NCBI RefSeq assembly: GCF_964355755.1
Contig: NC_092679.1
Span: forward strand, 5,672,201 to 5,736,200
Direction of reading: 5' to 3'
Origin: Antedon mediterranea
Taxonomy: Eukaryota > Animalia > Echinodermata
DNA: 64,000 bases
This document shows positions 9,155-57,200 of this stretch, piece after piece. Within the stretch, counting starts at the first letter, position 1; each line of letters starts with the position of its first letter. Under the pieces are notes generated by a model. It searched no databases. It was given only the letters and a program-made list of their open reading frames with translations, and was not told the origin of the DNA. The translations under genes were made by a program, and so were the position numbers.

Positions 9155-9430
9155 TAACTACATCTACGCTTACATAGCACCCTCTATAATTACTGTACCT
9201 TTTGTTTTTAGAAGTATGGTAGCGTACCTCTAGACACAACATTATTTTCATAACAAAAATTGCAATTTTGCGCTTACAAATTCACTGCTTTTCATGCAAT
9301 TATTATTATTATTATTTGTCTGCCCTTAGTTAGTGCATTAAATATAGTGCAACTGAGTTTGTAGTAGGGAACCATATTAATACATTAAGTCGGATGAATA
9401 GCCACACAGCGTTTATATAGCCATACCTAC

Positions 9431-9854: not shown

Positions 9855-10233
9855 CTTTGGCTTAGCTCTTTGCATCTCGAAGTAAACAACAAGACGTGAT
9901 CAGTCGTCCAAAACAAACACAGCAACAACCAGCAGCAGTGAGTGTTGCTGTTGTTGATGATATGGTCAAATTGATAGTTATTCGGTGAAATATCGCATCA
10001 ATAACCAACATATAGTCACGATTTCTGTTGACTCACTTTCGAAAGATGACAAATAGCAATTACCTTTTTTATTTGCCGTTAACAATAAGTGAGAAATAGC
10101 GTAATTTCTACATGCATCCACGTGCGTCATCCATTGGGTCAATGAACTTTTCGTTCGTTGTGAAGGAATTCCAGAGGGAGTCCTTTATCAGGAGATAAAA
10201 ACACATGTTTATTCGAACGCTCTTTTTTTTCAG
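9845..10233. promoter_or_regulatory. Probable bidirectional promoter between MEN1 and the 10488 gene
   Basis: Divergent genes ~630 bp apart; CpG-richer than flanks; YY1-like AAGATGGCGG overlaps the MEN1 ATG on the minus strand. Confidence 0.5.
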
Positions 10234-27392: not shown

Positions 27393-29913
27393 ATGGCTGT
27401 TCTTAGGTTTTTTTGTTTCGCGCTCATTCTGAGTCTTTGTTTCGGCAGAGCTATGACGAATGAAACGGAGAATATAATTAAAAATATTCGAGCATTGATT
27501 TATAAGGCACTCTACGATAATGTTCTTGAGAAGACCGGAGGACCAAATGAGCTGAATACCCTTGTACTCCTAGATCCCAGTATTCCTTTGAACAAGGAAG
27601 ACATTGGACACACACCAGATCCATCAACGCCACCAGATTTGTCAGAGTTCAATAATCTACTTCCTACTAAACTGTTAATTAACAACCTGAACTACAAAAA
27701 TGCACCTATAATCCAAAAGAATGGCGTTGCACAAGTCTACAAAAAAATATTAGACAAAATGATCGTTGAAAAACCAAAGTTAAATAACATTGAACAGAAC
27801 AGATACAACGAAGCGGAGATTTTGACTAACGAACGCGTTTCTGGTTCGGTGATTGGACGTACAAGTAATGAAGACGTAACTAAATTGGAAGTTTATCGCC
27901 ATTTTCGGTCAATTTACTTCAATGCCAAAGAAACCAAGGAAAAGGAGATTTATGAAAAGAAAAATACACTGAGTTCAATGGAATATCGAAATTGGTACAT
28001 GTACAATTATAGAAAATTAAAAGATAACGAAAAATCTGCTCTACAAGATTGGGTGATTAAAGGCTACAAGAAGATCATCAGTGAAGCGCTGGAGATCATT
28101 GATGACGTTGATGAAATTTCTATACTAGAGATAGACGATGCAAAGAATGAATACGAGGCCGCTATTTACGAAAACGAAAACGAATTGAGCTTTAAGAACA
28201 TAATCAAAGATAAGATTAAATATGATGTTGAATATTCCCCAACAAATTGGAACGACCATCTATATGATCAAATGTAAGTTTTGTTTTTTAAGATAAGTAT
28301 ATTTTCTATCATGCCTGATATTTTATTTCATTGATTTTGCAACCGATTATAGGTACTCTTATCACTGGTAGGCCTGCATTACTAGCAAATCCCACAAACA
28401 ATTATTTTCTTAATCATTTTTAATATTATGATTTGTTTACAGACATGCTCCGACACCAACTTCTTCTCAATATCTAAACATGATTGTTGATCTGAAAGAG
28501 TATTCAATCGTACTACAGGCTATCGCCAACGCTCACGCATCAGACGCAGTCGAAGCGCAAGACAATATCAATACAGACGAAGCGACTGTGAAAGCTCAAG
28601 AAGATGCACTAGTAATACAGGTTGCTGAGTTGATAAAGCAGCTTGACGATTGCAATGAATTAAATATGAATTGCTTAAGCGTCGATGCACTCGCTGAAAA
28701 ACAGAAGAACGATACACTTAAGTGGGAAGAAAATCAGACACAACTCGATGAATACAAACTAATTCTAAAGAACGCCAACAGTATCAAAACGGCGGTTGAT
28801 AATCTTATCATAAAGATTGGAGATAAAATAATCAAGTATGAAGAGGATTACGAAAATGAAAAGATTATTGAGTTAGAAACGGACAATGATTTGTTAAATA
28901 ATCATGACTTCCCTGAGGAGGAATGGGAAACCTTCTATTTTAATTCCCAAATTGAGCTGAGAAATATTAACAACGAAATTGGAAGAATTGCGGAATTCAA
29001 ACCAGCAAAAATTAACAAAGAATTTAAGGAGATTATTGAAAAACGTGGCTCTAAGACTCTAAAATTAGAAATCAGAATGCATTACAGAGGTGTTGGTATC
29101 TATAGGCCTTGGTTTAACGAAGAAATATTTAAGAACGATAACATCAAACTTGTAAGTTGCCGTTAATATATTTCTCTTGAATTTTTTTTATTTTTTATCA
29201 ACATGTTGAAGGAAAGAATGGAACGTATATCTCAACACCTTTAAAGCCATTTTAGTCTTACCTACTTATCGTTATTTTTGCTATTGAATTGTAAATTCTG
29301 AAGTCTATTTTAATATCAGGCAGGGGAATTTCACTATTCTTGACAAAAAAAGTGATCTTTTAAAGGGAAACTTTGTGTGGGTCCTGAATGTCCCTTAATA
29401 TTTGTTTACTATAGTTTTACGGGTTTTTTCATGTAACTTAAAAAATTATATTTATGTTTTTATTATCTGATTTAGAATGACAAAACATTGGTATCACCTG
29501 GCTACAAAGACGACCTGATTAATGAATTAAAAAAGAAAACAAACAACAACAACGACAAAGAAGATCTGTACAAATTCCCTCTTTATCCGACGGGCCTCCT
29601 CATTGCCAAAGACATCAAGATGAAAATCCGTGGTTTAAATGAGAAAGTGGGCAAGGAGTTGATCGAGAATTCCTACAACGCCGATCAAATCGGCATCGAT
29701 CCTCCAGAAATTATTGCTGATGATAACAATGACAACGATAACAATGCAATCCACCACTATGGAGAAATATTCGGGTTTACGTACAATAACCGTGATACCA
29801 ATGCAGTTCGCTATAGAGTGAGACAGGACTACAATGACGTCGACATAGAATTACTCGAGCCACATATTATAGGTCAGTACTGTGACATCATGAAGAAATT
29901 CCCTAAAAAATGA
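27393..29913 (+). CDS. Uncharacterised secreted protein, copy A (~675 aa, 3 coding exons)
   Basis: Exons 27393-28273, 28443-29151, 29476-29913 join in frame with GT-AG; signal peptide MAVLRFFCFALILSLCFG; 5'UTR donor cag|gtaaga at ~26902; AATAAA ~30066. Confidence 0.9.
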
Positions 29914-30125
29914 GGACCTTTTAGTTTTTGTATGTAGTAAATACTTGTAGTACATGTAGATTTTAATCCTTAAAGGGCGTACACGTGTAAATCCAAACTT
30001 ACCACTAGACATACCTGTATAGAGAAGAAGACTTCTGATACAATTTTGTTACACATTGGAATACAAATAAATTCTTGAATTGAATCTAGTATTGTATTAA
30101 CAAATTAAGTATGAAATTTTTAAAA

Positions 30126-30270
30126 GTAATAGTTGACGCGAATTAGTAATAGTTGACGCGAATTAGTAGTTGACGCTAATGTAGTAGTTCACGCTAATTA
30201 GTAGTATTTGACGCTAATTAGTAGTAGTTGACGTTAATTAGTAGTAGTTTAAGCGAGTAAGTAGTAGTTT
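30126..30270. repeat. ~20-bp tandem repeat (gtaatagttgacgcgaatta)n; counterpart 35648-35760
   Basis: Tandem units downstream of each duplicated gene. Confidence 0.85.
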
Positions 30271-30506
30271 TATACTTTAATATTGTGACTCTGAATATAG
30301 TAGGCCTACAAATGTAAAACAGTTTTTAAAGAGTTCCAAATCAACATGTTGAAACATTTAATAAATTGTTTTTCCAAAAATCTTTGTTTACACTAGTGTT
30401 CCTCTTGTTTAAAACCTTACCATTATTTTGTACATTGAAGGAACTGAGTGTATAAAGCAAAATGAAGTGTGCTTAGCATCGTCGAATGAAAGTTGGAGGC
30501 CTAGCT

Positions 30507-30750: not shown

Positions 30751-32922
30751 TTAGATAGTTATTAATTAAATCTATCCTTGTCTGAGTTCTGGTTGAGGTA
30801 TACTGTAAAATAATTTACTGATTTGCAGGAGGCAGTTCATAAACAGTATTTTACTCACATTGTTTGGCCTCCAATAGTAGGCCTACATGCTCTCCTCGAT
30901 AAGTCTACAGTTATCGTCTGACTTCCGCGAAAACAATCCAATGATCTGATTGGTCAAAAGTCGGCCTACTTTGACGCATTTGGAAGATAAAACAATACAA
31001 CGCCGACAATTATTTTAGTGTGAACGTTTGTGAGCATGCTTTGAAGTCTGTCCTTTAAATAACCTATCGGTTTAAATGTAACCAAATTTATAGTTTTAAT
31101 TCATTTTTATGATATTTCTTAGCCATTTATTATATTTGCTGTAGCTATAACTGACCTCGTCTATATTTCCGGTTTACTATAGGAAAGACACTCGCAAGGT
31201 ATACAATTAATTTCACCTTTTTATAAGTTGATGCTACGCAGAAATGATAATCTCAGATGTTTTTCAATGACCAGTAAAGCCTCCGTTTCCTGATTGACTG
31301 GGATAGGGAGACGGACGTGTGATATCTTCAAGGCCTGAAATACCTGTTTGTTGTACATTTTGGCCCGCAGGCTTATCTTGAGCCGTGAAGTGTGCACATT
31401 TGTGCAAACAACTACATTTGTGTAAACATGTTGCTCTGAAATGTGCAAACAACCACATTTGTGCAAACATGGCACCCTCAAATGTGCAAGTTTGTAAACA
31501 TGTATTTAATCCACTAATGTGCAAACATCACGCCGTTAAATGTGAAAAAGATCAGTTTTAACGTTAAATGTGCAAACAAAATACTACAAAATGTGCAAAT
31601 TATTTTCTTTAACAAAATTAATGAATTAACAGGAAAATAATATAGATGAAGTAGGTAGGCCTTGTGGATGAGTATGGTGTAATCCAGGCGAACGAATGTA
31701 ATGCGTGACGTTTGCACATTAGTGAATTATACAGATTTTCACATTTGATGGTGTCATGTTTGCTCATTCAGGGCAACAGTGTAATATTTTTAATAAAATA
31801 ATATAAAATCTGTTTTGTGAATTTCCTTTAAAACAAGAGGACAATGATAAGGAACTATTTCAACGGTATGGAAGTCATCATCATCTCCAGCAAACAGCGA
31901 CCATGTGTCAGTCCTGCATTCCCGGGACATGATAGTGTTTTTTCTTTTTTCAAAACGATTATGTCAACCTCTATTAATAATTAAATATGTAAGTGGCTAT
32001 ATCTTTAAATCATTGACAGATTGAGCCTGTTCTTTCGTTAGTCTTATTGTTTAAATGAATGTTATAATCTAGGCCTATAAGCAAAATGTGTACTTGTCGG
32101 GAGTGCGAAAAATGTTTGATGCGCTACTGCTTTATTGCGGCGAAATTTCAATCATGATTCTGTAAGGAAAATGAATGGGAAAACTACTTCCCTGGAAGAA
32201 AATGTTTGGATAATCGGCTTCAAAGTTAATTCAAACAATAATACGAACATGAGAATAAAAAGGAGTCACCAACTTCCTGTTGTTAGGCTAAGATTAATAA
32301 TCGATTGGGAATTATTTCCTTTTGGTCGGGAGGGAACAACCATTACTCCGTGGAACAATTACAGCCCGACAGTCTTCATAGAACGACTGGCCAGCTAACA
32401 GCTAACAGGTAAGATTACAACTTTGTTTTTGTTAAAATATTAATTTTCAAACAAATGACTGCAAAGTATTTTATTTAACGAATCAAGCAACGTATTAGAG
32501 GTTGATATCGAAGAGTAAACATTCGAATTTCATGTCGACCCGTTTTGAATGTTTGTGGAGGGAGACACCGGCATTTTGCAACACAAAATAAAATTGGAAA
32601 AAAGCAACAATAAAAAAAAACAAATTTAAACAGAGTTCTAACAAAAAAGTCAATTGCTGCTTTATTTCAGCTGCTTGATTAACTAAACAAAATTGGAAAG
32701 TATTATCAAGTTATTTAACGCCCCACAATAAAAAAAAAAGTGGGGCGGTGGATGTCTGTACAACACCATCCTAATAACAACCATTAATCATGGTCTCTAC
32801 TACACTTAAACATTGCATAAATAATGCACCCAAAATGAATAAAATTATCTAATGGTTTTAAAGTTTCCTTCGAGTTGAAAAAATATAAATGAACTTACTT
32901 TTCTTTAATTTTCGTGCAGACT

Positions 32923-35438
32923 ATGGCTGTCCTTAGGTTTTTTTGTTTCGCGCTTATTCTGAGTCTTTGTTTCGGCAGAACTATGGCGAATGAAACGGAG
33001 AATATAATTAAAAATATTCGAGCATTGATTTATAAGGCACTCTACGATAATGTTCTTGAGAAGACCGGAGGACCAAATGAGTTGAATACCCTTGTACTCC
33101 TAGATCCAAGTGTTCCTTTGAACAAGGAAGACATTGGACACACACCAGATCCATCAACGCCACCAGATTTGTCAGAGTTCAATAATCTACTTCCTACAAA
33201 ACTTTTAATTAATCATCTGAACTACAAAAATGGACATATAATCCAAAAGAATGGCGTTGCACAAGTTTACAAAAATATACTCGACAAAATGATCGTTGAA
33301 AAACCAAAGTTAAATAACATTGAACAGAATAGTTACAACGAAGCGGAGACTTTGACTAACGAACGCGTTTCTGGTTCGGTGATTGGACGTACAAGTAATG
33401 AAGACGTAACAAAATTGGAAGTTTATCGCCATTTTCGATCAATTTACTTCAATGCCAAAGAAACCAAGGAGAAAGAGATATATGAAAAGAAAAATACACT
33501 GAATTCAATGGAATATCGAAATTGGTACAAGTACAATTATAGAAAATTAAAAGATAACGAAAAATCTGCTCTACAAGATTGGGTAATTAAAGGCTACAAG
33601 AAGATCATAAGTGAAGCGCTGGAGATCATTGATGACGTTGATGAAATTTCTATACTAGAGATAGACGATGCAAAGAATGAATACGAGGCCGCTATTTACA
33701 AAAACGAAAACGCATTGAGCTTAAAGAACATAATCAAAGATGAGATTAAATATGATGTTGAATATTCCCCAACAAATTGGAACGACCATCTTTATGATCA
33801 AATGTAAGTTTTGTTTTTAAGACAAGTATATTCTCTATCATGCCTGATATTTTATTCCATTGATTTTGCAACCGATTCTCGGTACTCTAATCACTGGTAG
33901 GCCTACATTAACTAGCAAATCCCACAAACAATTATTTTTAATGTTATGATTTGTTTACAGACATGCTCCGACACCAACTTCTTCTCAATATCTAAACATG
34001 ATTGTTGATCTGAAAGAATATTCAATCGTACTACAGGCTATCGCCAACGCTCACGCATCAGACGCAATCGAAGCGCAAGACAATATAAATACAGACGAAG
34101 CGACTGTGAAGGCTCAAGAAGATGCACTAGTAATACAGGTTGCTGAGTTGATAAAGCAGCTTGACGATTGCAATGAATTAAATATGAATTGCTTAAGCGT
34201 CGATGCACTCGCTGAAAAACAGAAGAACGATACAATCAAGTGGGAAGAAAATCAGACACAACTCGATGAATACAAACTAATTCTAAAGAACGCCATCAGT
34301 ATCAAAACGGCGGTTGATAATCTTATCATAAAGATTGGAGATAAAATAACCAAGTATGAAGAGGATTACGAAAATGAAAAGATAATTGAGTTAGAAACGG
34401 ACAATGATTTGTTAAATAATCATGACTTCCCTGAGGAGGAATGGGAAACCTTCTACTTCAATTCCCAAATTGAGCTGAGAAATATTAACAACGAAATTGG
34501 AAGAGTTGCGGAATTCAAACCAGCAGTATTCAATATCGATAGTCCTCATAACGTACTTGATGTGATTGTTCGGAGAAATGAGAATCTAGAATATGAAATC
34601 AGAATGCATTACAGAGGTGTTGGTATCTATAGGCCTTGGTTTAACGAAGAAATATTTAAGAACGATAACATCAAATTTGTAAGTTGCCGTTAATATATTT
34701 CTCTTGAATTTTTCAAGTTTTTTTTTATCAGCATGTTAAGAAAAGAATGGAACGTAGGCCTATATCTCAACACTTAAAGCCATTTTAGTCTGAACTACTT
34801 ATCGTTATTTTAGCTATTGTATCTTGTAAATTCTGAAGTCTATTTTAATATCAGGCAGGAGAATTTCTTGACAAAAAAAATTGATCTTTTAAAGGGAAAC
34901 TTTGTGTGGGTCCTGAGAATGTCCCTTAATATTTGTTTACTGTGGTTTTACGGGTTTTTTCATGTAACTTAAAAAATTATATTTATGTTTTTATTTTCTG
35001 ATTTAGAATGACAACACATTGGTATCACCTGGCTACAAAGACGACCTGATTAACGAATTAAAAAAGAAAACAAACAACAACAAAGAAGATCTGTACAAAT
35101 TCCCTCTTTATCCGACGGGCCTCCTCATTGCCAAAGATATCAAGATAAAAATCCGTAATTTGGATGAGAAAGCGGGCAAGGAGTTGATCAAGAATTCCTA
35201 CAACGCTGATCAAATCGGCATCGATCCTCCAGAAATTGTTGCTGATGATAACAATGACAACGATAACAATGCAATCCACCACTATGGAAAAATATTCGGG
35301 TTTACGTACAATAACCGTGATACCAATGCAGTTCGCTATAGAGTGAGACAGGACTACAATGACGTCGACATAGAATTACTCGAGCCACATATTATTGGTC
35401 AGTACTGTGACATCATGAAGAAATTCCCTAAAAAATGA
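32923..35438 (+). CDS. Uncharacterised secreted protein, copy B (~676 aa, 3 coding exons)
   Basis: Exons 32923-33803, 33961-34678, 35007-35438 join in frame; same intron positions and phases as copy A; intact ORF. Confidence 0.9.
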
Positions 35439-36761
35439 GGACCTTTTAGTTTTTCTATGTAGTAAATACTTGTAGTACAGTAGATTTTAATCCTTAAAAT
35501 ACACGTGTAAACTTTTAATCCAAACTTACCACTGGATATACCTGAATAGAGAAGAAGACAGATTTCTGATATAATTTTGTTACACATTGGAATACAAATA
35601 ATTCATGAATTGAATCTAGTATTGTATTGAGTATGAAATTGTTAAAAGTAATAGTTGACGCGAATTAGTAATAGTTGACGCGAATTAGTAGTAGTAGTTG
35701 ACGCGAATTAGTAGTAGTTGACGCTAATTAGTAGTAGTTTAAGCGAATAAGTAGTAGTTTTATACTTTGATATTGTGACTCTAAATATAGTACAAATGTA
35801 AAACAGTTTTTAAAGAGTTCCAAATCAACATGTTGAAACATTTAATAAATCGTTTTTTTCAATAATCTTTGTTTACACTCTTGTTTAAGACTTCACCATT
35901 ATTTTGTACATTGAAGGAACTTACTGAGTGTATAAAGCTACTATATAAAAAATATAACAAGTAAAGAATCCATACAAAATGAATATTATAAATAAATATC
36001 TGCTACAAAATACCTACAACTAAGATTATCAAACAGAAAGCACCGATATATGAAGACTGGCAACTAACTACTACTGTTCTCAAATATTAAAAGACCATGT
36101 CAAAATTATTCTACTTTTTGCTTAATTTTTAATTATTCAGCGAGTTTGGGAGTGACCGCATCTTTGAAAGAAATTATATACATAACATCTTTTTTTACAG
36201 TATAGTTGTTTCTGCAGTACAATAATTTTGACATGATGACTAACTCAATTCCATTTTGCATTGAGATGTATCAACATTAATTGATCTTTACAAACAATCA
36301 AAATTCATTTTGGATGGACAACTTAATTTTAAGCTGTCTTGCAGCTGAGAGTTGTACATAATATATTCAAATGTTCAACATTTTTTCCATAAAAATGTTA
36401 ACTGTGTGTCAGTGGAATTATCACTGCTTCATAGTCTAATGGAAGTCAACCTCTAAGGCAGAAAAGCTTGACCTCTGGCTCTGACCTCAAAACCAAAATT
36501 CACCCCTATCAACAGTTTAAAAAACAAATGACCACATGATTTCTAGCCCTACACTAATACATATATATAATTTTCTACCATATAGTTCTACCGTTAAGAT
36601 GTGCATCTCTCTACGGCCAAACCTTCCTACAACCTTGTGCCTATTATATCACAACCATGTAATGCGATGTATAAGTTCATACAACATTCCAGAATGTTTC
36701 TGAAATGGAAGTATTTAACACACAACCTTTGTGAAGAAAGAAGAGTGAATCTTCGGTAACA

Positions 36762-39700
36762 TCACTTCTTGTCGTTGACACTCCGTCGTGGTGACCTCCT
36801 TGGCGACGTTGAAAGAAGAGGATTTGCTGAAGCTATTCGGACTGTCTTTTTCTGAGTGGGTTTGTGAAGAGGCTTCATTTTTGGTGGGGGTCGAAATTTA
36901 GGTAAGCGAACAGATTTTGTTTTTGTATTATGAGTTTCATTCTGAAAGACACAAAATTATGAGAAATAAAACAAAACTATTTTTTACAAATTATAAAACT
37001 ATGTATATTTGAAAATGATAAAGGGTACAGTTACGCAAAATGATACGAGCACTGTTTTGGAAAATAAGGTTAGAGCCAAAGACACGAACAATGAAAGTGA
37101 TATCATACAAATTTTAGAGGGCAGTATCTACCTTGTTATAGAATGTAAATTCCGAACATGATACAAATCTCAAATCCTTCTAAAAACATCTGCTCAATTG
37201 TCATATTACCAAAATTACCAGAAAGGGGTTAGTCAAGGAAGCTATCACAACACAGGTTGGTATGTAAGCATGTGCCTGTGTTTATGATCTATTGTTATGG
37301 CTATAATGTTATGGCAATAAAAAACTTTTAATTAATGTAAATATCAAGATGGAGAATATTCAAAATCAATAGAACCGTACCGTGGTGGTAATCGCTGGAG
37401 CATGAACACTGATCATGTGAACAAGCATCTTTTTCAAACGACCAGTACACTTTCTGTCAACGTCATCTTCAAGCAAAACCCCGTACCTTCGCTTATATTC
37501 ACGTCGAATTAACACAAGATCAATCTAAATGAAATAATAAAATTAAATTCATATTTTTTTTAAGTGAAATTTAAACAATTATGTAAAAAAAAACATAATA
37601 TGAAATAATTTTGCATACATGCATTTTGCCTGTGGCATTATAAGGCAAAATGATTTCATGCTATTGATCCCATAAAAAAAAAAATTAATAAAATGTGAAA
37701 ATGTGTGTAGTTGGGCGCTTTCTTGTAGATGCTTTAATTGTAGAACGTAATTATTTATTAATTTTTTTCTTTCTGTGCTCTGTTCTGGGTTGACCAACTA
37801 GCATAGGTGTTTAGCACCTGTTTGGTCTTTCCTTGCCTTTTATAATTGTTTTGTCTTCTTTGTAATGTATATGACAGAAATTGAATAAATACAATAAATA
37901 AATAATAAAATAAAAGGTGAATAAAGAAAATCTCAATATGCTATTCGGAAGTGCAGAAATCATCTTCTGGGTGTAATAGTCATTCCAATTACCTCTGCTC
38001 TTGTTGTGATAATTCTCAAGACAGTCAAATTATCACCTTTCTTCAAACTGCTGTGTAGAACATCCACAAAATACTGGACACAGTTATCAAAACATTTCAC
38101 TGGAATAAATAAGATCAAGTTAGTTAAGTTGAAGATGCTCTCCAGGAGGAATGCCATCCTGAGATGAGTAGCAGTAATTAGTCTTGTTTATTTTATTTCA
38201 TTTATATGTAATGTTTACTTTCTATGGACCAGAGATTCCGAAAAAAAAAAAGGTTGAATGAAATAACAACAATTATTAGAAATCCTAATACACTGGCGAA
38301 TGGTTTGTCTATCACTGTATATCATCTGTCAATTTACTGAAATATTTACTACTCTGCATCCTAAATTCGAAACACACTTATATGTCCTCGTCTCCCACCT
38401 AACCTAGATAAAAGTTATTTAATTTTATAATAATATAATAATAAAAACAGTTTCTTTAAATTGTATTTGTTGAATGGTGAAGATATTTCATAAGTTAAAA
38501 GATTGACTGAATCTTTCAACTCATAAAGTATATTCTCCATATTTAACTCCTGAACTTTTATTATTTGTATAATCATCTTACCTAATGTTAACATCATAAC
38601 TTTCATATCAGCTGCTAGAACATTCTGTAGTTCACGCTTAAGATTTTGTCCAGATTTCTAAATCAAACATTAAAATAAACATTAATTTCAAGTTCTTCTG
38701 TGGATAATATAAAACAGATATTGACTGCTTAGAGGTTAAATATTTACATAGGCTATGTAATATAAAACAATATTACATAGCCTATGTAAATACGCTAATG
38801 TGATTGGTTGAAACTGCATCACATGATTACCGCTGCGAGGATCGTAAATCGTATATATCCTCGAGAACGATGATATTGACTGTGTAATTTTCGCGTAATT
38901 ATCGTGTCCCCTGTCATTAAACATATAGATTCTCGAGTACGATGATATTGACTGTGTAATTTTCGTGTGCCAACACTAGCGTTGCCGATAAATAAACAAA
39001 AGTCATCTACTCGATCTTGAACTCGGGTGGAATTGTCACTCCATCGCAAGACAACGCTTCAACCGCTGCGCCACGGAAGTTGCTTGAAGAAATTAATCAT
39101 CTAAACTATTTAAACTATGCATACATAGCGCCCTCATTTGTTATAAGTCCACCCTAAATGTGATGAAACACCGTTTGTGATTGGTCAATACTCACGGTAG
39201 TAACCTAGTAACTAGTACGCGCTGAACATCCGGTGATTCGGCTCCTCGAAGATCGAGAAGAAGACGAATTGTTTATTCGGCCTACCTGATTATAATATTA
39301 TTATTTTTAATAGGCTTATTGATGGAAATTCTTCTGTTAATTTAAACGACCTAGGCCTAAGTGAATATTTTATTGCCAAGGAATCATTAATTAGTAATTA
39401 TCTGTATATTATTCTTCGCAAGGTAAGGTGTCTAGGCAGGCTTGTTTAAATACAATACAAATACTAGGATAGGAGGCCTAGCCTAGCTTCACCCAACCCA
39501 GCAGACTTGTTCTTGGCTATATAATATAACAGATATTGCCTTTTATATCGGTTAAATATAAGATTTGACATCCCCTCGGGAATGATATTAAGTTCTCGGG
39601 AAATATATATTCCCTCGAACTTAATATCATTCCCTCAGGGATGTCAAATCTTATATTTAACCTCTAAGCAGTCAATATCTGTATAGTATTGAATCTCAAA

Positions 39701-42700
39701 GTTGTATTTTAAAACCTTGTTCTTACCTGTGTGTATCTCTGGAAAACACTACCAATGTGTTCAAAGCTTTTATTTTCCATTAAATTAAGCAGCTGTCCTT
39801 CCACATTCCAGCGGCTGTCTCCAGCATCTATAAGGTAATCCACATCACTCTCCACTTCCTCTTCGTCCACTGACCCTGTCTCTCTCCTTGCTCCCTGTGA
39901 ATAAAAGAATGCAAAACATATAGGCCTAGAAGATATTATAACATAATCATCCATCCCCATGATCAAAGAGAATAACTGGTGTTTCTCAACGATTGCTCAA
40001 AAGAGTATCCAGATAGTCCAGTTAACTTATTTTTATTGCATGGCCTATGGGGTAACAATGAATCACTTCTTCTTGGAATTTCAAATATAAACATTTCACA
40101 TGCAGTTTCAATTTTGTTTAAAAAATGTTTACCAATTTGAAGAAACAATAAGCAAATACTTTTTAGTACACCAAGTGGTTTACCTTGGCTAAAGCTAGCA
40201 TCATCTTCATTGAATCTCCACTAAAATTGTCTTTAATGCCATCCTCAATAGTTTGATCAAATTCCATTTTGTAGGCATCCTTAATGAGGCTGATGGCCTG
40301 TAGGTACATGTAGAAGTATAAACAATGTAATGAATTGAATTGAATAAACTTGATAGGTGAACACATTAAACAACTAACTGCATATATAGAATCTCACCCT
40401 ATTCTGGGAAGTGAATACGTTACTGTGAAATGAACAAGGGGGAAATATACAAAAAAAGAAACACTGTACACTACTTAACTCCTATTCAGGGAATGTCCCT
40501 TGGTTGTGTCCCAAAGGTGTCCCCTTAATATGATTATTATTATATACACAATTGTTTTGTCACACACAATGCATAGACAGCTGGAGAATACACAATATAC
40601 AAAAGTAACTATAGTCTCAGATTATTACAGTAAAGTTTCTGTTTCATTACCATGATTACTTTTTATTATCAATCAAAAGAAAATCTGTACCTACCTTATT
40701 ATTTCGTGTACATAAGATTTCAACCATAGTTGTATAAGAATGGGTCTGAGGATAAAATGAGCATTTTTAGAATGTAGTAAACATTTAAAATAGACTATGT
40801 TGTTTTCCTCAGCATTCCCCATTTTACAACAAATCAACAAATTAAGAATTGTAATACTGGTAATTTCTTGTTATATAAAAAATGTCTTTTGCAAGTTTTT
40901 TCAGTTTATGGAATGGGTGTAGTTAAACACAACTTTTGTGTTTAAACATGTACAGAAAACTTACCAATAAGGCATGATTTAGGCACAAAGCATCATACGT
41001 CTGTCGTTCTTTAAGTAACGCATCAAAAATTGCATCATAATCTTCGCCTAACTTCGTTCTTAATTCAGTTTCAAGGTCCTAAAAGATAACAATTATACAC
41101 TTATAATGTCCATATTATAAGCCTACAAATCATTTTTTTTTCTAACGTGCTATTATGACCATATTGGCTTAATTGACAAGTTCCATAAAGCATCAGAATA
41201 TATTCTGCAACTTTACATGATCATGCTTGATTGTAAAAGTGATGACGTACAGTGGCATAAAAAATGTCTTATGATCATTAAAAATATTCAATTTCTTGAT
41301 ACTTACTAGTTTGTACTGAGCTTGGAACTTGACTTTTGTTTGGTGGCGCTGTGCATATGTCCGACGAACCAGTGCCTCTATCAGGTTTTTCTGTGTTTGC
41401 CCTTGAAAAATGAAAGATAAACAAATTGAAATAAATATTTCAACGACGTCTAAAACATAAATTCACTTGCAATGTAATATGCATCCCCATAAATTGGTAA
41501 TAGAAAATCATTGTAGAGGTTTTACAAATACATATGTACTGTAATACATAGTGGATATGTTGCTTTGCATTAAGTATGTTTAAACAAATCCAACAGCAAA
41601 CATTTTGTATATAAACATGAATTCACATACCTAGACCCTTTATTACCCTAAATAATTTAGTGGAATCTTCACCATCATCATATTCTTTTGGTTTACTAAA
41701 TTCCTTTTTCTGAAATTAAAACAATACATATAATATAATATTCAAATTTAATGATAATAAACTGAAATTTTTAATATAGCCAACAATTTGTACTCCTTTC
41801 CTAAATTAAATTTACCTTTTTTTTCTCCTGTTCCTTTTTTCTAAGGTTACCAATGGTTGGTAGTTTTGTTGGCTGTTTCTTTAACATTCTTTTTTCTGGA
41901 GAAGGTTTAATACTTTCTTGTTGCTATGGAAATAAATAATACGTTTAAAGGTATGCTATTCATTGTTTAAATAACACCTTAATAGCTAACCAAGGCCATT
42001 GGCTTCTAGTGTCACTAAACCTGATGGATGCACTGGACAACCTGTAGAACCAAGGTGAACCCTATTATAACTGAATTATTACATGTTTTTATTTATTTAT
42101 TGAACTTCTCACTAACTTACTGTTAGTGAAGGATCGGGATCAACAGGTGGTAAACAGTGGCTGTGTGTGACAGTGGCTGTTTGTGACAGTGGCCGTGTTT
42201 TGTGTGGACTAGTACACCGGGGTAACACCCTACTCGTCTGAAAAGATATACTAGGTTTTTTAAAGTGAGCTGTGTGTACACGATTTAGTGTCCTTATCTG
42301 AGAAGACTCGTTCTACCACCGGAACCATGGAGCGAGTGAGCCTCGAACCCTTGTAGTTTATGTCTTCAATTCACTTTTCTTCTTCTTGTGTAGTAATAAA
42401 ATAATAATCTCTCCCGTTTAGGCATGACAACCTTATTAGTTAATTAAAAACAGTTATTCAAATAATTATTAATTTCAACCTACCACTTCTTCCTCTTGTT
42501 TATCCCCAGTGTCATCTTCATTTGAAATCTTCAGACCTTCAAAACCTCTAGTATCTATCTCATACGATTTTGTTTCTTGTGTTTTTTGCGATAGGTAATA
42601 CTCATGCATCAGATACTCATCCTCCTATGATAATCAAAAGTTTAAATAACTCAAGTTTACAAAACAAGTTGAATATACCTTTCAAACTTATTAAGCTTGT

Positions 42701-45700
42701 TCACCACTAGAAAAAAAATTCTATCACAACACAACTGACTAGGCAACATAAGAAAATCTTCTTCTATCAATCTTGCATCCCCTCTTATGACATGTTGAGT
42801 CATCACTTTTACAACATACACAAAGCAGAAAATGATGTTCATTTGCCATTTGTGACATGCAAGTATGTTTTTACAGCACTTCGCATTGATACGTTACGGC
42901 ATTGCGTTCCTAGTGGAAACCAAGCTTAAAGTGTAAAATAAAAAAGGTCATATACCCATTTATCTGAATCATAGACGCCATTAACATTGTTTAATCGTCT
43001 CTGTATTTTAGAATTCTGTTGTGCTATTTTCTCTTGTTCTCGTTCCATAAATGGGCCATTTAAACTAGAAATTAAAGAAAAAAACAATAACAATATAAAA
43101 ATATGGAATACGCCTCATTATGAATAAAAAAATGTCCATTTCATTGTTCTGTGTGTTGTATGTACTATACAGTGTAATGAAGTTTATAAATTATGTTACC
43201 TTTTTGGTTCATAATCCCAATTCCAATTGTCTAGATGACCATTTGACCGAAGCACATTGGTCAGTTTTGCTAACAGAATACGATTTTCATAATCTATTAC
43301 AGCTTGTCTTTGTTCCTCAGCCTAAAAATAAATGAATTTTAGCTTTTAAAACAAAATAAATTTAACTTTTAAAAAAGTTAGTAATAGGTAGAGTAGGCCT
43401 AAATTGAAATACAAGTTGATTGATATAAAAGGCAATAATATAATAGTAAAGAGAATAACAGCATTTTGGATAAAGTCTGTCAAACACTTATATGAAGAGA
43501 ATCTAAGTCTAGTTCGGTTTTCTTATGTTTCTTTCGCTTCTCTGTAGGTCAGGTTCGCAAAAATGACAATGCCAACATCCGAAATTTTTTTATTTGTTAA
43601 CAAACATGGAATACAGTGAGATGGCCCTTTTTAGGTTAACCATGTTTTACAATATAAATTTTTTAATATATGTTACCTGTATTTTCTTCATATTAATTTG
43701 CATGTGGTAAAATGTTTTGGGTTTTTTTGTGTCTAATCCATGTTTCATACGGTTCATCTAAAATGAAAAAAGAAAGTAAATTTAAACCATTCAATCTTAT
43801 TCATTAAAAAATCACAACTCTGTCAATTTAAAGATGTACTGTACTGTCCTCCAAAAACATGAAAAACAAAGTTTAATAATAATAATGAATAGTTTATTTT
43901 GTAGTTTTAATAAAGTTAATCACTTCCGTAGAAAAAAACAAAATAAAATAATGTTTTCACTTATAAAATGACAAATACTGTAAATGGTTAAATTCAACCA
44001 AAAACCCATTGGCTGGCAGCCAATTTGACAATTTTTTGCTTTAAATTATAGTTTTTTCAGGTAAATACATTTTTTTTTTATCCAAGTTTTGGTCAAAGTG
44101 GATAACTATTATGTTACATTAAAATGGCATATTCAACAACAACAAAATTTAAAAACTATTTTTCAGGGGGACAATACATCTTTAAAAGATTATTTTCACT
44201 GGAGAAATATCTGAAAGAGAAGAAGAATTATTTTTTTAGGGGGACAATACATCTTTAAAAACTTTAATAAAACATGAAGTTTGTTAATAAGACCATATTG
44301 GAGATGACAATATACTAAATAGATGTCAAATTGGCTAATGAATACAATATTGCCTGTGTTGATATTAGTAATTATTTTTATTTCGAGCAATTCCAAATTT
44401 GTTTTTATATTATTTCAATTAATAAGGAGTGGCTACAGTATGTGTCTTCAAAAGATCGTTCTCATCAACAACGTATACCTGAGATATTATTAGGATTTAG
44501 CGAATCTGAGCCACTGGTTGTCATAGAAATACAAAACAATCCCTTTTAGTCAAACACTATTAATGAAATCAATGTTATCTTGTACAATATTGGCAAAGAA
44601 TGTTTGATTAGCTAATGAGATTTCAAGACCGTATTTTAGAGAGGCATTCTTAAGTGTTTTGGCTTTCATAAAGATGTATTGTCCCCCAAAAACATTAACA
44701 ATGAAGAATTTATTTAAAAAAAATCAAACTTTGAATATTCTGTATGTCATTTAGCAGTTTTAATAAAGTTATTCATTACTATAGAAGAAAAAAATGAATA
44801 ACTATAATGTAGTGACATTATAATGGCATATTGAAAAACAAAATTATAATTGCTTTTTTTTCAGGCAGGAGGTGGGGGGGGGGGGAGGGGTGGGATATAC
44901 TGTAATATAGTGTTGTGTTGAGGTACTAATGAAGGACTCTTACTCGCTTAACTGTCGTAACACATATTGTTTATTCAGTATAATACTTCAGTACAATATA
45001 CAACTATAAGTATAGATAAGGAACGGAGGATCAGTGATGCTGTCGGTGAGGTGTGAAGTGTGTAGGTCTGCTTCTGAAGAAGTGGCTGTGAGGTGTGTGC
45101 TCCGTGAGGTGGCTGTAAGGTGTGTGCTCCGTGAGGTGGCTGTAAGGTGTGTGCTCCGTGAGGTGGCTGTAAGGTGTGTCTGGGCTCTTCTGAAACTTGG
45201 GGGTATATTGGCTTCGGTTCATTTGCATATGTCACAACGTCATCTGTGAGGGTAACGATTGGTCCTAAGTTGGTCCAGGGGTGTTTAGTTAGAAGTGATT
45301 AACGGTATAATAAGGTATTTCTATGATGGATGACACTGTCAAATCTGTACTTAAATAGTGTCAATCTCTCCTGGTTTAACGATGGAAGTACGTGTTTTCT
45401 TTAGGGATTCTATTATGGTTATTAAACATCTGGACAAACTCTCCTCTGGACTTTCTGGGTCAAGTTTGTGAACTTATTTGAATTCTGATACAAAGGTCAA
45501 TTTCTTAATTATAAAAGTATATCATTATATTACAATACCTTGAAAAAATTAATAAATATTCTACAGTATCTTTAATTCATTTCATTTGAATACATACAAG
45601 ACATATTAAACTATTTTATTTCAGTACAAATCTTGGAATCAATACTTTTTAACCATGGATGGAACTAATTCCTCTACCCTCTTACTCAAATGAAGAAAAC

Positions 45701-46155
45701 AGATGTGTTTGCAAATGTACATTTCAAAGCAGGGTTAGAATTGAATGGTCAAATAGTCTAAATATATTTTAATACAAGGATTTCATTAAAAATGTCCATT
45801 GATATCAATAAATCAATGGCATAACATTAATTGGTACAATATTTTTAAAACTATAGCATTTACACATCAATTGATAAAAAAAACTTGGATTGTGAGCATG
45901 GATTATTAGACTAATTTCCATGGTGTGTGAGAAAGAAGATAAAAATAAAAAACGAAAATCAAAACGATAAGTCTACCATTAAGAACATACAAAAAACATG
46001 TAATTTCATTTGCAAATTACAAAAGATAAAAAGTTGGGACATGTAGGCCTACTTACCTTTTGTAAGTGGAGTTTATAAGCTCTGTCATTCCATTTCTTTT
46101 GAAGTCGATTACTACAAGCAGGAAAAGCAGGTACTGTTCGAGGCATGCTGAGCAT
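36762..46155 (-). CDS. CFAP97D/Hemingway (KIAA1430)-domain + annexin-core fusion protein, 16 exons, ~595 aa
   Basis: Phase-consistent exons 46057-46155, 43677-43757, 43200-43321, 42956-43064, 42484-42624, 41816-41923, 41631-41709, 41307-41401, 40965-41078, 40695-40745, 40184-40297, 39727-39894, 38582-38657, 37993-38099, 37381-37524, 36762-36941. N-terminal LQRKW...LDTKKPKTFYHMQINMKKIQAEEQRQAVIDYENRILLAKL...SLN is CFAP97D-like; C-terminal IKGLG...VEILCTR...LRIITTRAEIDL...YKRRYG is annexin-like. Confidence 0.85.
38706..39690. mobile_element. Non-autonomous TIR element with internal hairpin and tRNA-like fragment
   Basis: acagatattgactgcttagaggttaaatat (~38714-38743) inverted at ~39653-39683; hairpin ~39549-39662; A/B-box-like segment on minus strand ~39015-39078. 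Confidence 0.6.
43832..44181. mobile_element. Kolobok-like MITE (TTAA TSD); relatives at ~4220-4450, ~5205-5470, ~44670-44860, ~50830-51050
   Basis: TTAA|AGATGTA..TGTCC ... GGACAATACATCT|TTAA; shared internal motifs such as aaatcagacttt and tttggtcaaagtg. Confidence 0.55.
45079..45180. repeat. 30-bp tandem repeat x~3 in intron 1 of the fusion gene
   Basis: gaggtggctgtaaggtgtgtgctccgt units. Confidence 0.9.
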
Positions 46156-46751
46156 GTTTAGAGGTAGAATTATTAGGCCTAGACTATTATAATTCTTAGA
46201 CTATCTGCCCCAAGAAAGTCACTGACTAGCGGCTAGTACTCAGGGTGAAGGTCTCCTATTATCTACTTCTAACGAGTAACGTCCTCGTCGGGATTTTTGA
46301 CAAAATCGCGTTAGTTGAATTTCGATCACTAAATTTCATTAAAATATTCACACGATGTTCGAGATGTTTGTCGAATTTACTCCGTTATCACAGTACAGCG
46401 AAACAATTGTTACTACAAACAAACCAAAGTATTATGTTCCAACTCGCGACTCAAAAGATGTGATAAACAAACTAATAAAAGTAAGCATGCGCGTCATGGA
46501 AACCATTCAATCAGCATTCAATAGACTTACGGTAAATCCAGACGTCGTAAAAGTGGGTTAACTCGTGCAAAGCCAGTTTTGGGAAAAAGTTTTACATTTT
46601 TAATATATACGCAAAAAAGCAGTATAGTATTGAAAATGTCGATTAGATTGAGGATTTGCATGTCAGTTTAAACCCATTTTTTCCTCAACTGGGATAGTTC
46701 CTTTGTATAGTCTCCATCTTCTTGTAGGAGTAGGCTATAGTATACAAATAA

Positions 46752-46895
46752 TGAATGTTTATGATGAGTGTGATGGTACAAATAATGGCATGAGGAAGGT
46801 TATACATCAACGAGGCGACAACCGAGTTGATATATAACCTTACATCATTCACCAAATGCCATTATTTGTACCATTACACGAATATATAAAACATA
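46752..46895. repeat. Imperfect hairpin / MITE remnant
   Basis: atggtacaaataatggcat..aaggttata vs tataacctt..atgccattatttgtaccat. Confidence 0.55.
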
Positions 46896-47183
46896 AATGC
46901 ATATAAATGCACCTACTAGCCTAATTCTAACAATGTCTTGTAGAGATGTTCCCATTAATCAAAATCCTAAAAACGAATTAGATTAGATATATATCGCTCC
47001 AAAAATGTCCTTCCATATCGATACCAGTCATATCATTAACAATAACATTTGCGACAAAAGTACAAAATAGGTGGCGCTGTTGTATTTCAAAAGCAACAGT
47101 ATACAAAAAATATTTTCCAAACACGAACAGATTTTTTTTTGTACACGAAAAAAAGTACTATTAAACAATCATTTAATAGTGCA

Positions 47184-51210: not shown

Positions 51211-54200
51211 CTAAAGAGTTTTACAATAGCCTTTGAATATGTCATAAGTCAGTTCTGAACCATCGTTGCACTGAATTATATTACTTGCAAGGTTTGGCAA
51301 TTTACTTCCTATGCCACTTGATGATGATGCATACACCATCTTGGTTCTCATGTTTGCCTTGTCATCATCAACCCTACAACAAAAATGCCATGTTTTAGTA
51401 TTAGAGCATGTCTTTAACACAACATTTTTTTAACCTTTGTGATGTAGAAAATGGCCACGACACACCAGATACAGTATGTACACTCGAAACATCCTCCCCA
51501 ATTTCAGGATTTGAGTATGATAGAATTTGAGACTAGGCCTCCACCACCACACAATTTTTTTTAGAATTGCAGAAGTGTAAATTACAGGCACCACGAAAAG
51601 TATAAAGTGCAGTCACACACAGTTTGATTTTGGTCCCAGAGCACTGTATATTCGTGCTGCAGATGAGAGAGCTCTCTATAGGAAGAAAAAGTAATTACGT
51701 CACGCTTCCGACTGCACTGGGGCCAAACAAAGCTTGGTCGGCCATCTTGTCCTATTCTAATACATTGATTTAACACCGCTTTTTCGTACATCCTGATAAA
51801 TTTTGTTTTTACATAATTTAGAGTTGTTCATCTTGCTTTATTTTACTATGTTAGTACAGTAGAACCTGTGTTTTACGTACCCTGATTTTACGTTCCCTTG
51901 ATTTTACGTACGCTTAAAATAACCGATGACGTCATCATTTTCTTACATTGAGGGCGCAATTTAACAACAAGAAAGCTGTGGCTGTGTGTGTTAGGAATTC
52001 TGCTGTGTGTTTGAGACAAGCTACGCACGTGCATTTAACCAGCGACTGTTTTTATTGATAGAAAATACAAGAACATTGATATTTTACATTTTATTTAAAC
52101 ATCTCACAGCCTGTATATACAGTACTGTACTTTTCTAGTTAGGCCTCACATCTTGCTAGGCCTGCTAGCCTGGCCTGAATAGTCTAGGCAAGGCCTAGCT
52201 AGTGACAACCTGCATGCTGTTCAGTAAAGTAGACAAACAGGGTAGCCTTTATAGCTACGATCTCTACGTATTTGGGGTCAATTTAAGGTCAACCTTGATT
52301 TTACGAATCCTTTGTTTTACGTACGCCTTTCGGTCCCGTACCGTACGTAAAATGGAGGTTCTACTGTACTGTAGTGTTGAATATTTTGCTTGGCCCAGTG
52401 CAGTCGGCAGCCAGGAAATGTGACGTCACACTTTTTCTCCCTATATTGTATCGACATATTTTTGTACTCCTTTGTCAGTCTCTTTTTGCAATGCAAAACC
52501 ATATTCACATAGGCTAGTGGAAAACAAGCTTGAAGCTATATTTAATAATAATAATAATAAAATCTTTATTTTTGCAACGGAAAAAAACTCGTTCACCAGA
52601 AAGATTCTTCCACAAGGCCGTATAACATTGTACATAACACACAAAGTATTGTAATAAAGAATTAAAATCAAGGTTAAAGTCCTGTTCCCTACATTTTTGT
52701 AGATCTAATTTAACGGTACAAACTACATGTAATGTAAAAATAAATACTATATGGTCCTATTGCGATAACTTTTTTCGTCTTTGGTTAAAAATGTGAAAAA
52801 TAAGTAAATTCTAATCATTTTAGCGACCCGCTATAAATCCCAACATGTATTGCGCGCAGATGAATATTTTAGGATTTCTTCTGTGATTCATCTACTTTCG
52901 ATCGATTGTGAAGGCCAAAATAAATGGAAGAATTGTAACTTTTCAGCGAAAATACTAGGATTTTCCCCCAATTCATATTACGGATTCTGGAAAAAACAGA
53001 AAAAAAATTACTGCGACAACTAGAAAATGTCAGGATAGGTCTATAATTAATAGCTACAGTAGCATACAATGTCTGTACTTTACTGTTGTTTACCAGCTAG
53101 GCCTACAAAACTAAGCCTACCTAGGCTAGGCCTAAAGACCGTCCACGAGAGGACATTCACCACGAGCTACTTAGGTAGTGCATTGATTCTCTCTTTATCT
53201 AAGAAGGGAATAACCTGAGAAGGTCCCCGGTTCGAGCCCTGGCGAAACCTATTTTTCTTAAACTTATGGTGAAATATACTGTATACGTAATATGATATAC
53301 CGGTAGAGTATATCTCTACTCGGGGTACCGGAGTCTAGGACTCTCATCTTTTCCTCTTCCATCCGGACACTATTGAGTAAAAAGTGCGACTTATAAAGTA
53401 CTACTCCTCCCTCATTCGTTGTAGTATTGAGCTGGGATTTGACATGAATATATTACAGGGGCATGTCCTCAAATCTATAGAGCCGGATTTTTTAATTTTA
53501 AACCGGATGCAGCCATATCACATCTCGAAGATGGTATTTGGAATGTGTGACGTTACATCCGGTCTTATGACGTCATTACAGCTTCTTTTGCTGTACCCCA
53601 AGTATCACACATTCGTGCTATATTTTATATTTATCTGTTTTTTTATCGTACTAATATTTGCCAATTTCTATTGTTATTTTATTATGAATGGACAAATAAA
53701 GCATTTCAGTATATATTCACACTTTTTCATTCTGAACAGATAGATAGTGCTGTTTTCTTAAATATGGGAAATTATATAAAGAATTGAATGGCAGTTCTTT
53801 TTTGTTTGTTATAATTGTGCTTACCATCTAATCAAGAAAGATTTTGAACGTTTACTTCCATCATCCAAAACACAGTTGTAAATCATAAAGGCAGCTGGCT
53901 CAGCTGTGAGGATTTCCTTTATTCTTGTAAACGCTGCCCTGGGTGTTTCATCTTTAACTTGGCATGAATGTACAACTATCTTTTCCTCGCAATCTTTGTG
54001 AAACTGTTGGTAAATTGCATCATCATCTTCAATTGGGGCTGTTGAAATTCTTTCAGAGTCTACATACACTAATTGACCCTTTTCTATTCGAGCAAGGATA
54101 TACAAATACTTTTTTAAAGCCACATTGTCGGAAGCTAATTTTTTAAACCTTTCTTCGACTGCAACACCTGACTGTAAAATAAAAAAAATTGGTAAGTAAA

Positions 54201-57200
54201 TGTGAATATTTAAATACAGTAACAGTAAAGTAATAAAAACTAGAACAGTATCTAGGTTTCTATATTTCTTCCACAAAATGTATATTGCTAGCTAATAATT
54301 TTGTATCAATATTATAATTTATAAAAATAAAATTAAAAGCCTAAAAGTAACCACTTGGGACCAGGTTACAGTATCTGTACCTGATACAACAACATGCACA
54401 CGTTGCTAGAATAGTACTACTAGTAGTGTAGGAAATTGACCCGTCATCCTATGGCCTGAACAAAATTTGTATTAAATACTGCATACAGTAGTGATAAATG
54501 TATGTCTATTTTATATAATGCACTTGTCAATTGCATGACCCACTATACAACCCTTGAGAGAGGTGCATCATTTATAATAATTATAAATGCAGGGATGCGT
54601 CATGGTACGTCACATACCGTATATTTCGGTGTATAAGTCGCACTTTTGACACACAAATTTGACCTCTAAATTAAGGGTGCGTCTTATACACCGAACATAA
54701 ATGCCTCACCACACAGAGTGTACATATCGTCACCTCGTTGGCTAGGCCTTAGTAGGCTAGGCCTAGCTACAGTGTACTAACGTAACGGCAACCTGCTTCT
54801 GCCTAGTTTTCAAGGCATTTTAGCGTGATGTTATACTAAATATGATGAAAAGATTTGTTTATTATGGAGCTGTTTTAAGCGCTCCGATAAAATTTCATTT
54901 GTAAACGTTTACGATCGATTGGAATAGTATTTATTTATAGTTATTCGCACGATCGCCGACCGCCGTACGCACGATCGCCGACCGCCGTACCCCCAGCGCA
55001 AGCCCTTCTTGGCGGCCACATGTTGTACGGTATTCGACTAGTATATTCTCCAGGTGATTATAGCGTGGACCTAGCGTACACACTTCTCGGATACATAGAT
55101 ACTAATCGAATACGATTGTCCGTGAAAACGTGCGCCCTCTCGAAATGATCGAGCGAGGCTAGCCCACACACGTGCGTGTTACACACTGTACTCGGTCATG
55201 CACTCGATGTTGCGGGTGCGAAACTCATGAATAACAAGTTAGAAACAACTTGTTGAGGCTGGGCGCGGCCGAGCCTAGGTAAGAAAAAACCTAAATAAAG
55301 GACGTCGTTGTAGATATAACAAAATATATTATTACAATAATATTGATTACAATTTAAAAAAAACATTGTTTTGATGAAATATAAGGTGCGTCTTATACAT
55401 AGACGATATAAAAAATACCGATATTTTACTCTCAGTTAGGGGGTGCGTCTTATACACAGGTGCGACTTATACACCGAAATATACGGTAATTAATAAACAA
55501 TGGTGTGTCAATGTCCGTCACTTTACCACCCACCATATCATGAACAACATGGTACATTGTTCTTTAAAATGTGTGCATCTTGGTCATCTTGGTTACAAAT
55601 AGTAACTTTTTGACGCAGGGGTGCATCATGGTATTCATAATGTATGACACACAGACAAATGACACACTCATACATTCTAATTTTTTTAAACAAAACATAA
55701 TTGTGTGAGAAAAACATAAAAGTAGATATCCCAATGAAGCAGTTTTCCGTTATGGTGATTCGAACGAATGCTCGTGAAAATTCAAAAAGTGACTTATTTT
55801 CCAAACTTTAAAAAAAAATCTATGCTGTGCAAGTTATTCTGGTTGTGCGTACAATTGGCTGAATATTCTGTATGCGCAAGTGCTATGCCTATTAGTAGTT
55901 CCAGTACAGTCAAATTGCTATATTGGCAAACGGCGCTCTATACTATTAGTACTGCAGCCAATTGTACGCACAACCAGAATAACTTACACAGCATGGATTT
56001 TTTTTTTACCAATGTTGAGTTTGGAATGTGTCAAACATATTGTTCAAATGTAAAAATAAATTAGACAACAATATCATCTTCATTTTTGTACTTATTTTGA
56101 TTGTTTTGAACAACAAATTAAGCATTAACTAATGATTTTTAAACACCATACTCAATAGCGCGCGCAGTCAGACTCAAGAAATTGGATCATTTACTATTTG
56201 TGGTCCACAACCACACCAACAAGCGGTACGCATATTCTCCATATACGCGGCCTAGCGCTACACTATTTTGACCAAGAAAAGACTACATATACAGTACAGG
56301 ACAGAATTATTGCAAAAATCCCAACGCATTCAACACGTTGTCGTTGCGTTGTGTTTGTGTTGCGTTGAACGGCTTTCAACGTTTAGTTGTTTATTCAACG
56401 AAAGTCATTATCAGCATGTCAAGTAAACAATTAGTTATTTCAACGCTAGCTGCTGCAGCGCTAGACTGGCCGATTGCACGCCTGAACGATCAGTAACAAC
56501 AACAGGCAAAATACCTATCGGCAGTCACTACCAGATATTTTAATATAAATAAAATATATATGAAGCTTAGATATATTTTTAAGTATTGAACGGACAGTTA
56601 CCAAATAAAACACACAGTGATATTTCCCAGTGTTTAGTGAAGGAAAACATCGAATAATAAGGTCGATGCCAAGTCTAACAGTTAACACTGTACTGTAAGC
56701 CTTCCGGGGGAAAACACGATCTCACGTCGTAAAATCAAACAACGTGGAAATTACTGACATCAACACACGAGGCCGCCACCCTGGTTTCCTCAAGAAAAAC
56801 ACCACGTGTGTTATGACGTATTTAACGATCGTTAATGACGACGAAGTAATTAATTTTATTTAGGCCTACATTTTTTAGCTGTTCGAGATTCAAGAGATAA
56901 AGTTAAAATATTGTTTCTCTATTTTGGTTTTTATTTTATAATTGTCCCATTGTTTGTTGTAATGTAATTTGAAAGAACTAAAAAAGTTGACGTGTCCGAC
57001 ACCCATGAACCAATTTAAATCTTTATAAATCGAACAACATTACATTTTTAAGTACAACAAGCGTTTTGAATACGTTAACAATAGAGCGTGTTGAATGTGT
57101 TGAACCCGTTGACCGTTCATTGACGACGTTAAACAATTGAATCCCATAGCGTTGAACGCGTTGAAAACGTTGCGCGTTTTGAAAAGCATCACACTGTAAA

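Follow-up and report, generated by a model that had tools for sequence, protein, structure and literature searches.

A CFAP97D-type domain and a four-repeat annexin core are encoded by one gene in Antedon mediterranea, on the minus strand of the 64,000-nt stretch of DNA analysed here (the window). Similarity searches indicate that this fusion is ancient and widespread in marine invertebrates and is not peculiar to the Antedon genome. Motif comparison adds a new finding: type II calcium sites have been lost from the annexin core that adjoins the ciliary domain. The fusion is present in databases, yet apparently undescribed: no published description of a CFAP97-annexin fusion was found in the mostly open-access literature that was covered, older annexin surveys being outside that scope. 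We consider it quite possible, short of probable, that in motile cilia or flagella the protein joins the doublets to the membrane, as a tether that works without calcium.

The initial annotation described 16 exons splicing in one frame between 46155 and 36762, and this was borne out when the exons were joined by coordinate (Table 1). All 15 introns are GT-AG and measure 106 to 2,299 nt, their phases are consistent and add up, and the coding length of 1,788 nt yields 595 residues with a single terminal stop. The frame of the earlier peptide stood, but residue 20 is Lys and had been given as Arg; likewise, the start coordinate was that of the first Met (46155), whereas the peptide began at the second (46146). 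In the 5' leader, an in-frame stop precedes the ATG, and a single further ATG lies upstream at 46339. With exon 3 as query, we arrived at a RefSeq model from the same species, XP_071962436.1, which is identical to ours; it is complete, including the N-terminal domain, and its name, 'annexin A13-like', reflects the annexin half only. Regarding exon 10, two RefSeq isoforms of Anneissia differ by exactly its 17 residues, and the Branchiostoma model is without the same stretch. Conserved skipping of this exon, which would cut into repeat II, is possible; the exon is present in the transcript contig described below.

Table 1. Features of the CFAP97D-annexin gene, numbered by position in the window
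Feature	Positions	Strand	Residues and content	Basis
5' leader	46156..46364	-	at least 209 nt	RNA-like contig extends to 46364
Exon 1	46057..46155	-	1-33, N-terminal helix of CFAP97D-type domain	splice model, contig
Exon 2	43677..43757	-	34-60, Hmw_CFAP97	Pfam, X1 joints
Exon 3	43200..43321	-	61-100, Hmw_CFAP97 core helix	X1 joints, solved relatives
Exon 4	42956..43064	-	101-137, Hmw_CFAP97 second helix	X1 joints
Exon 5	42484..42624	-	138-184, family-conserved helix past Pfam domain, then acidic first part of linker	X1 joints, alignment
Exon 6	41816..41923	-	185-220, basic half of linker; junction of the gene's two halves	joint 41923/42484 in X1, charge count
Exon 7	41631..41709	-	221-246, start of annexin repeat I	X1 joints, alignment
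Exon 8	41307..41401	-	247-278, repeat I	X1 joints
Exon 9	40965..41078	-	279-316, end of repeat I (Lys287 at acidic cap position), start of repeat II	X1 joints
Exon 10	40695..40745	-	317-333, repeat II loop and helix; 51 nt, phase 0-0	X1 joints
Exon 11	40184..40297	-	334-371, end of repeat II (Asn357 at cap)	X1 joints
Exon 12	39727..39894	-	372-427, repeat III, Trp400 in loop	X1 contig
Exon 13	38582..38657	-	428-452, end of repeat III (Val440 at cap)	X1 loose end and length arithmetic
Exon 14	37993..38099	-	453-488, repeat IV, shortened loop	length arithmetic
Exon 15	37381..37524	-	489-536, end of repeat IV (Lys513 at cap)	X1 contig
Exon 16, coding part	36762..36941	-	537-595, basic proline-rich tail, stop codon	X1 contig, alignment
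3' untranslated region	36058..36761	-	at least 700 nt	X1 contig runs to 36058

Transcript evidence comes from run X1, in which a single 2,701-nt contig (depth 25) spans 46364 to 36058 in spliced form and carries all 16 exons. X1 was taken as RNA since this contig is spliced; none of the five listed runs is on record as RNA. Eleven of the 15 introns are seen directly in X1, either as joints or as adjacent contig pieces: ten joints (introns 2 to 11) agree with the model to the base, and intron 15 is shown by adjacent pieces. Introns 1, 12, 13 and 14 come from exact length arithmetic on the contig, introns 1 and 12 being marked by loose ends as well. At a stricter setting, X1 has zero depth in nine of 30 bins, all of them intronic, and the DNA-type runs X2 and X4 continue unspliced across the introns they cover. 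At the two junctions that the initial annotation had singled out, 42484/41923 and 41816/41709, the model is exact, with joints in X1 that skip 560 and 106 nt.

The initial annotation had itself raised the alternative of two genes; this was looked at, and one X1 contig joins both halves. Given this contig and the conservation of the fusion, two separate genes are very unlikely. In particular, that annotation or assembly joined two neighbouring genes is largely refuted, and we regard it as extremely improbable. It draws some support from the transcript evidence being an assembled contig from one study rather than long reads; in addition, amphioxus has a 322-aa gene model of its own for the distal core, and some multi-core models may be merged. 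Against this, the contig has uniform depth and holds all exons in frame, the two introns in the linker are short, as just given (560 and 106 nt), and the same domain order recurs in 23 genera.

High-copy repeats lie in the introns of the gene at 37500-39900, 41900-42700 and 43500-45500, where contig depth is very high in all three runs; they include a short tandem repeat near 45090-45170. Elsewhere in the window, exons of a Menin gene (Pfam PF05053) occupy 1534-9899 on the minus strand, and a tandem 4-kb duplication with 90% identity occupies 26539-30458 and 32029-35938 on the plus strand. Each copy holds three long AT-rich coding blocks of about 305, 245 and 145 codons, the first of which has a signal-peptide-like opening. 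No Pfam, NCBIfam or PDB match was found for the first copy; the second stops just short of the 3' end of the fusion gene, on the opposite strand. An open frame at 53821-54291 (minus strand) presumably resembles ADF/cofilin and has no Pfam match.

The Pfam scan finds both parts that the initial annotation had read from the exons, that is, a CFAP97D-like domain in exons 1-5 followed by four annexin repeats. Hmw_CFAP97 (PF13879) covers residues 30-125 at 65.9 bits (cut-off 25.6) and profile positions 1-99 of 100, and Annexin is matched in four stretches, above cut-off, at 138 bits; NCBIfam has no match. Exon 1 matches a fish CFAP97D2 repeat by tblastn (E=0.001). Residues 229-525 align to solved annexins, and the part ahead of the core comprises 228 residues. 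The linker had been called charged, and the charge count agrees, with an acidic part followed by a basic part; the tail has 17 basic and two acidic residues. Within the window, tblastn with six queries found neither a further annexin core nor a further CFAP97 domain.

In the AlphaFold model built from 19 sequences, the N-terminal domain forms separate helices, the linker (155-202) and the tail have low confidence, and the annexin core is confident, with pLDDT about 80-94 across most of 231-529. The predicted core matches annexin A2 (2HYU) with a Foldseek TM of 0.90 and an rmsd of 2.3 A. A first model from five sequences, in which repeat I was misfolded, has been superseded; neither model gives a confident relative placement of the domains (pTM 0.53). 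In the tail encoded by exon 16, a basic proline-rich motif and then an Asn-Pro-hydrophobic motif are conserved in most of the 13 orthologues aligned from bilaterians, where they follow the first core, and the Amphiura tail continues as several basic repeats. The conserved tail motif could provide an additional contact with microtubules.

Among solved structures, exon 3 comes closest to chain 4T of 8SNB (231 aa), CFAP97D1 and a KIAA1430 homologue, and the nearest relatives of the N-terminal domain (8SNB 4T, 9V10, 8OTZ and 9E2G) are axonemal chains. The top atlas cluster for this domain is CFAP97D1 (0.92), and a stand-alone paralogue exists. The initial annotation had pointed to sperm flagella or motile cilia; no support for sperm specificity was found, as the 8SNB relative, from what we take to be a sea-urchin sperm doublet, is a stand-alone CFAP97-domain chain and not the fusion.

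A type II calcium site consists of a G-x-G-T loop and a D/E cap 38 residues on (PMC4863580, in excerpt), and sites were counted here under a relaxed definition of two glycines plus an acidic cap. The Antedon core has none of the four, with Lys, Asn, Val and Lys at the cap positions (Table 1), so that ordinary calcium-bridged membrane binding of the annexin type is not expected. Among 24 proximal cores, meaning those that adjoin the N-terminal domain (several from partial models), 12 of 96 sites are kept (0, 9, 3 and 0 in repeats I to IV), compared with 136 of 172 in 43 ordinary-size annexins from the same search. Repeats I and IV are each intact in none of the 24, whereas they are intact in 31 and 34 of the 43, respectively. 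The repeat IV cap is Lys or Arg in 16/24 proximal cores versus 1/43 ordinary annexins, and the repeat III loop carries Trp or Phe in 24/24 versus 19/43. Eight of the nine inner conserved charged residues of the core remain; since they remain while the calcium motifs are lost, the fold appears to have been kept and the surface changed. In several molluscs, a brachiopod and cnidarians, two to four sites are retained in the distal cores; in Styela and Branchiostoma, the distal cores have no site left.

A profile search of 1.84 billion representatives, together with word searches, found the same domain order widely. Both domains exceed the Pfam cut-offs in one chain in 23 proteins (4/4, then 16/51 selected long matches, then 3/3 further ones). 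The architecture search across Metazoa proposed earlier thus returned the fusion in 23 genera, one of them named only via a cluster mate: Oscarella; Nematostella, Stylophora and Acropora; Haliotis, Mytilus, Mya, Batillaria, Solemya and Plakobranchus; Lingula; Ridgeia and Capitella; Tubulanus; Ptychodera and Saccoglossus; Styela; and Antedon, Anneissia, Apostichopus, Holothuria, Amphiura and Strongylocentrotus. We take these to represent nine phyla, which range from a sponge and cnidarians through molluscs, annelids and echinoderms to a tunicate. In a partial Branchiostoma model, the N-terminal domain was detected by local profile. The domain combination had been called unfamiliar, which holds for the literature covered, but the proteins are widespread and already in RefSeq and UniProt with both Pfam domains precomputed, under names such as A13-like, A6-like, A7-like, myosin-9-like and DNA ligase 1.

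Among the 189 proteins collected, with the search taken to its best 150 representatives, all those with both the N-terminal domain and a core belong to the groups just listed; no fusion from a vertebrate, arthropod or nematode occurs, the fish match being a stand-alone CFAP97D2. Within this set, loss of the fusion in these three groups is suggested. The sponge case is one gene model, and its N-terminal domain resembles stand-alone CFAP97D2 more closely, at 43-46% to three fish repeats versus 26-41% to the fusions. In the ESM Atlas, no cluster with both domains was found among clusters of 50 or more members. Two other architectures were observed in passing: seven proteins, one of them from a land snail, represent another type of annexin fusion, in which the N-terminal domain is Fn3-associated, and a cfap97d2 model of the flatfish Solea has six tandem Hmw_CFAP97 repeats.

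The number of cores varies among the fusion proteins. Those found in echinoderms and hemichordates have one core and no distal core; the number rises to two or three in many lophotrochozoans and in the tunicate, and to three to five in cnidarians. The Antedon tail aligns with the inter-core linker of two-core forms. The simplest reading is that one old fusion was followed by core duplication and that the distal core was lost in ambulacrarians. In the trees, all of them quick runs, bilaterian first cores form a clade that follows animal relationships (SH-aLRT 100, 20 rows), and one branch separates all fusion cores from 41 ordinary annexins (SH-aLRT 93, with four partial cores left out). The Antedon core groups with the fusion cores and not with the sampled ordinary annexins, which are mostly unnamed and include no named A13, an annexin with a short N-terminus. 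Two short proteins nest among the distal fusion cores. The N-terminal domains of 19 cnidarian and bilaterian fusions form a group (SH-aLRT 96, with one outgroup species only) that excludes the sponge protein and the CFAP97D2 repeats of fish. First cores and cnidarian tandem copies lie on one side of a branch (SH-aLRT 83), and without the sponge this grouping is not rejected by the AU test (p=0.65), although it was chosen after seeing the tree, long branches may attract, and the AU-test trees left out 18 fusion cores and 28 of the 43 ordinary annexins. A clade of first cores only, which excluded the cnidarian tandem first-core copies, was rejected by the AU test (p=0.001).

Little is established about which molecules attach the membrane of motile cilia to the doublets along the shaft. 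As a tether, the protein would bind ciliary doublets through its CFAP97D-type domain and link them to the membrane without calcium through its calcium-dead annexin core; calcium control would be added by a further core, distal and with intact sites, in molluscs, a brachiopod and cnidarians. The N-terminal part of an annexin leaves the core on the face opposite the membrane, which suits a tether; the doublet-to-membrane distance behind the linker argument is an assumed value. The axonemal solved relatives, an N-terminal domain intact in every fusion protein aligned, the preserved core fold and the retained repeat III aromatic, whose counterpart in annexin A5 enters the bilayer, also speak for it. 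From the CFAP97 side, excerpts describe CFAP97D1 as a MAP on the outer doublet surface (PMC13406575, PMC11779644) that is required for axoneme integrity (PMC7444823), and a fly orthologue that localises to cilia (PMC10425847). From the annexin side, the flagellar annexins of diplomonads may serve as a precedent by analogy: many have few intact sites, and they are placed at flagella, around the outer doublets and at the membrane (PMC4863580, in excerpt).

Several results count against the tether. Loss of the four calcium sites removes the textbook route of membrane binding, and the docking site in 8SNB is filled by a 231-aa stand-alone chain without the fusion. According to the excerpts of PMC3982993, assembly requires Hemingway, and mature flagella lack it. 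A promoter scan of 46100-46900 found no X-box and seven forkhead-like sites versus about four expected, which is unremarkable; for the Antedon protein, no record of localisation, tissue expression, lipid binding or proteomics was found.

Another conceivable, though unlikely, role is that of a ciliary protein whose calcium-dead core is a protein-binding scaffold, parking a partner such as a kinase, an EF-hand protein or tubulin tails on the doublet. The loss of all four calcium motifs, the exchange of acidic caps for basic residues and the conserved basic proline motif after the core would fit such a scaffold, as would the mammalian TSSK6-CFAP97D1-EFCAB3 module on the doublet (excerpts of PMC13066092) and the interaction of alpha-14 giardin with tubulin (excerpts of PMC4863580). 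However, the repeat III loop aromatic is kept in every proximal core, and the calcium sites retained in distal cores of relatives point to a membrane-facing protein. The record of Hemingway, together with the stand-alone paralogue being the nearest solved doublet chain, would favour an assembly factor that, in ciliogenesis or spermiogenesis, couples axoneme growth to the delivery of membrane or vesicles and is no longer present once the organelle is mature; as the N-terminal domain belongs with CFAP97D1/D2, a type made up of stable components of the doublet, we find this rather improbable. A role outside cilia, for example in linking cytoplasmic microtubules to membranes or vesicles, would agree with the lack of direct ciliary evidence for the fusion, the negative promoter scan and an RNA-like run of unstated tissue. 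Yet the fusion occurs in groups with ciliated larvae or epithelia, and we regard such a role as very doubtful. The CFAP97-domain proteins characterised in the excerpts of PMC7444823, PMC3982993 and PMC10425847 are likewise all ciliary.

On a wider view, which we put forward tentatively and judge to be on the unlikely side, the fusion proteins would constitute an unrecognised annexin subfamily. A doublet-binding domain and a calcium-dead core, joined in many lineages by a second core competent for calcium, would have been fused at or near the origin of animals into an axoneme-membrane link, calcium-regulated in some groups, retained by marine invertebrates and lost in vertebrates and ecdysozoans. 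This link possibly accounts for the unexplained 'Annexin A' signal that larvae of sea anemones and sea urchins show in their apical organs and ciliary bands. For the Nematostella apical organ, excerpts of PMC4300403 report three models of annexins and, separately, a gene with a KIAA1430 domain; for the sea urchin, they report an annexin named Sp-Anxa7 in the apical organ and ciliary band. The three Nematostella models could be pieces of the five-core fusion gene; no mapping of their identifiers was found in the text or two supplements of PMC9481973. The fusion protein has the anatomy of a doublet-to-membrane link, and its orthologues in sea urchin, Nematostella, mussel and tunicate are tractable. 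The fusion also defines an old annexin lineage, hidden under wrong names, whose members run in a natural series from calcium-dead proteins with one core to those with several.

Among known systems, CFAP97D1 and CFAP97D2, fly CG14551 and the 8SNB chain share with the fusion PF13879, its N-terminal position, its extent of about 160 residues and three or four separate helices, but they are short stand-alone proteins (solved chains of 164-231 aa), to which Antedon adds the annexin core. Drosophila Hemingway and human CFAP97 (KIAA1430) share the domain family and ciliary context, whereas their domain is C-terminal and no annexin is reported in the excerpts of PMC3982993; the fusion is closer to the D1/D2 branch. 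Canonical annexins (A13, A7, A11 and A6, after which databases name the fusion) have in common with it the four-repeat core, the fold and the inner salt-bridge residues, and the Antedon protein differs from them in having no intact type II site, a long N-terminal part and a C-terminal tail; annexin A6 resembles the two-core forms in architecture only. The best functional analogues are the alpha-giardins and Spironucleus annexins, with eroded calcium loops and locations at flagella, doublets and membrane, although they belong to an unrelated lineage and, in the excerpts of PMC4863580, have mostly short N-termini and no reported CFAP97 domain.
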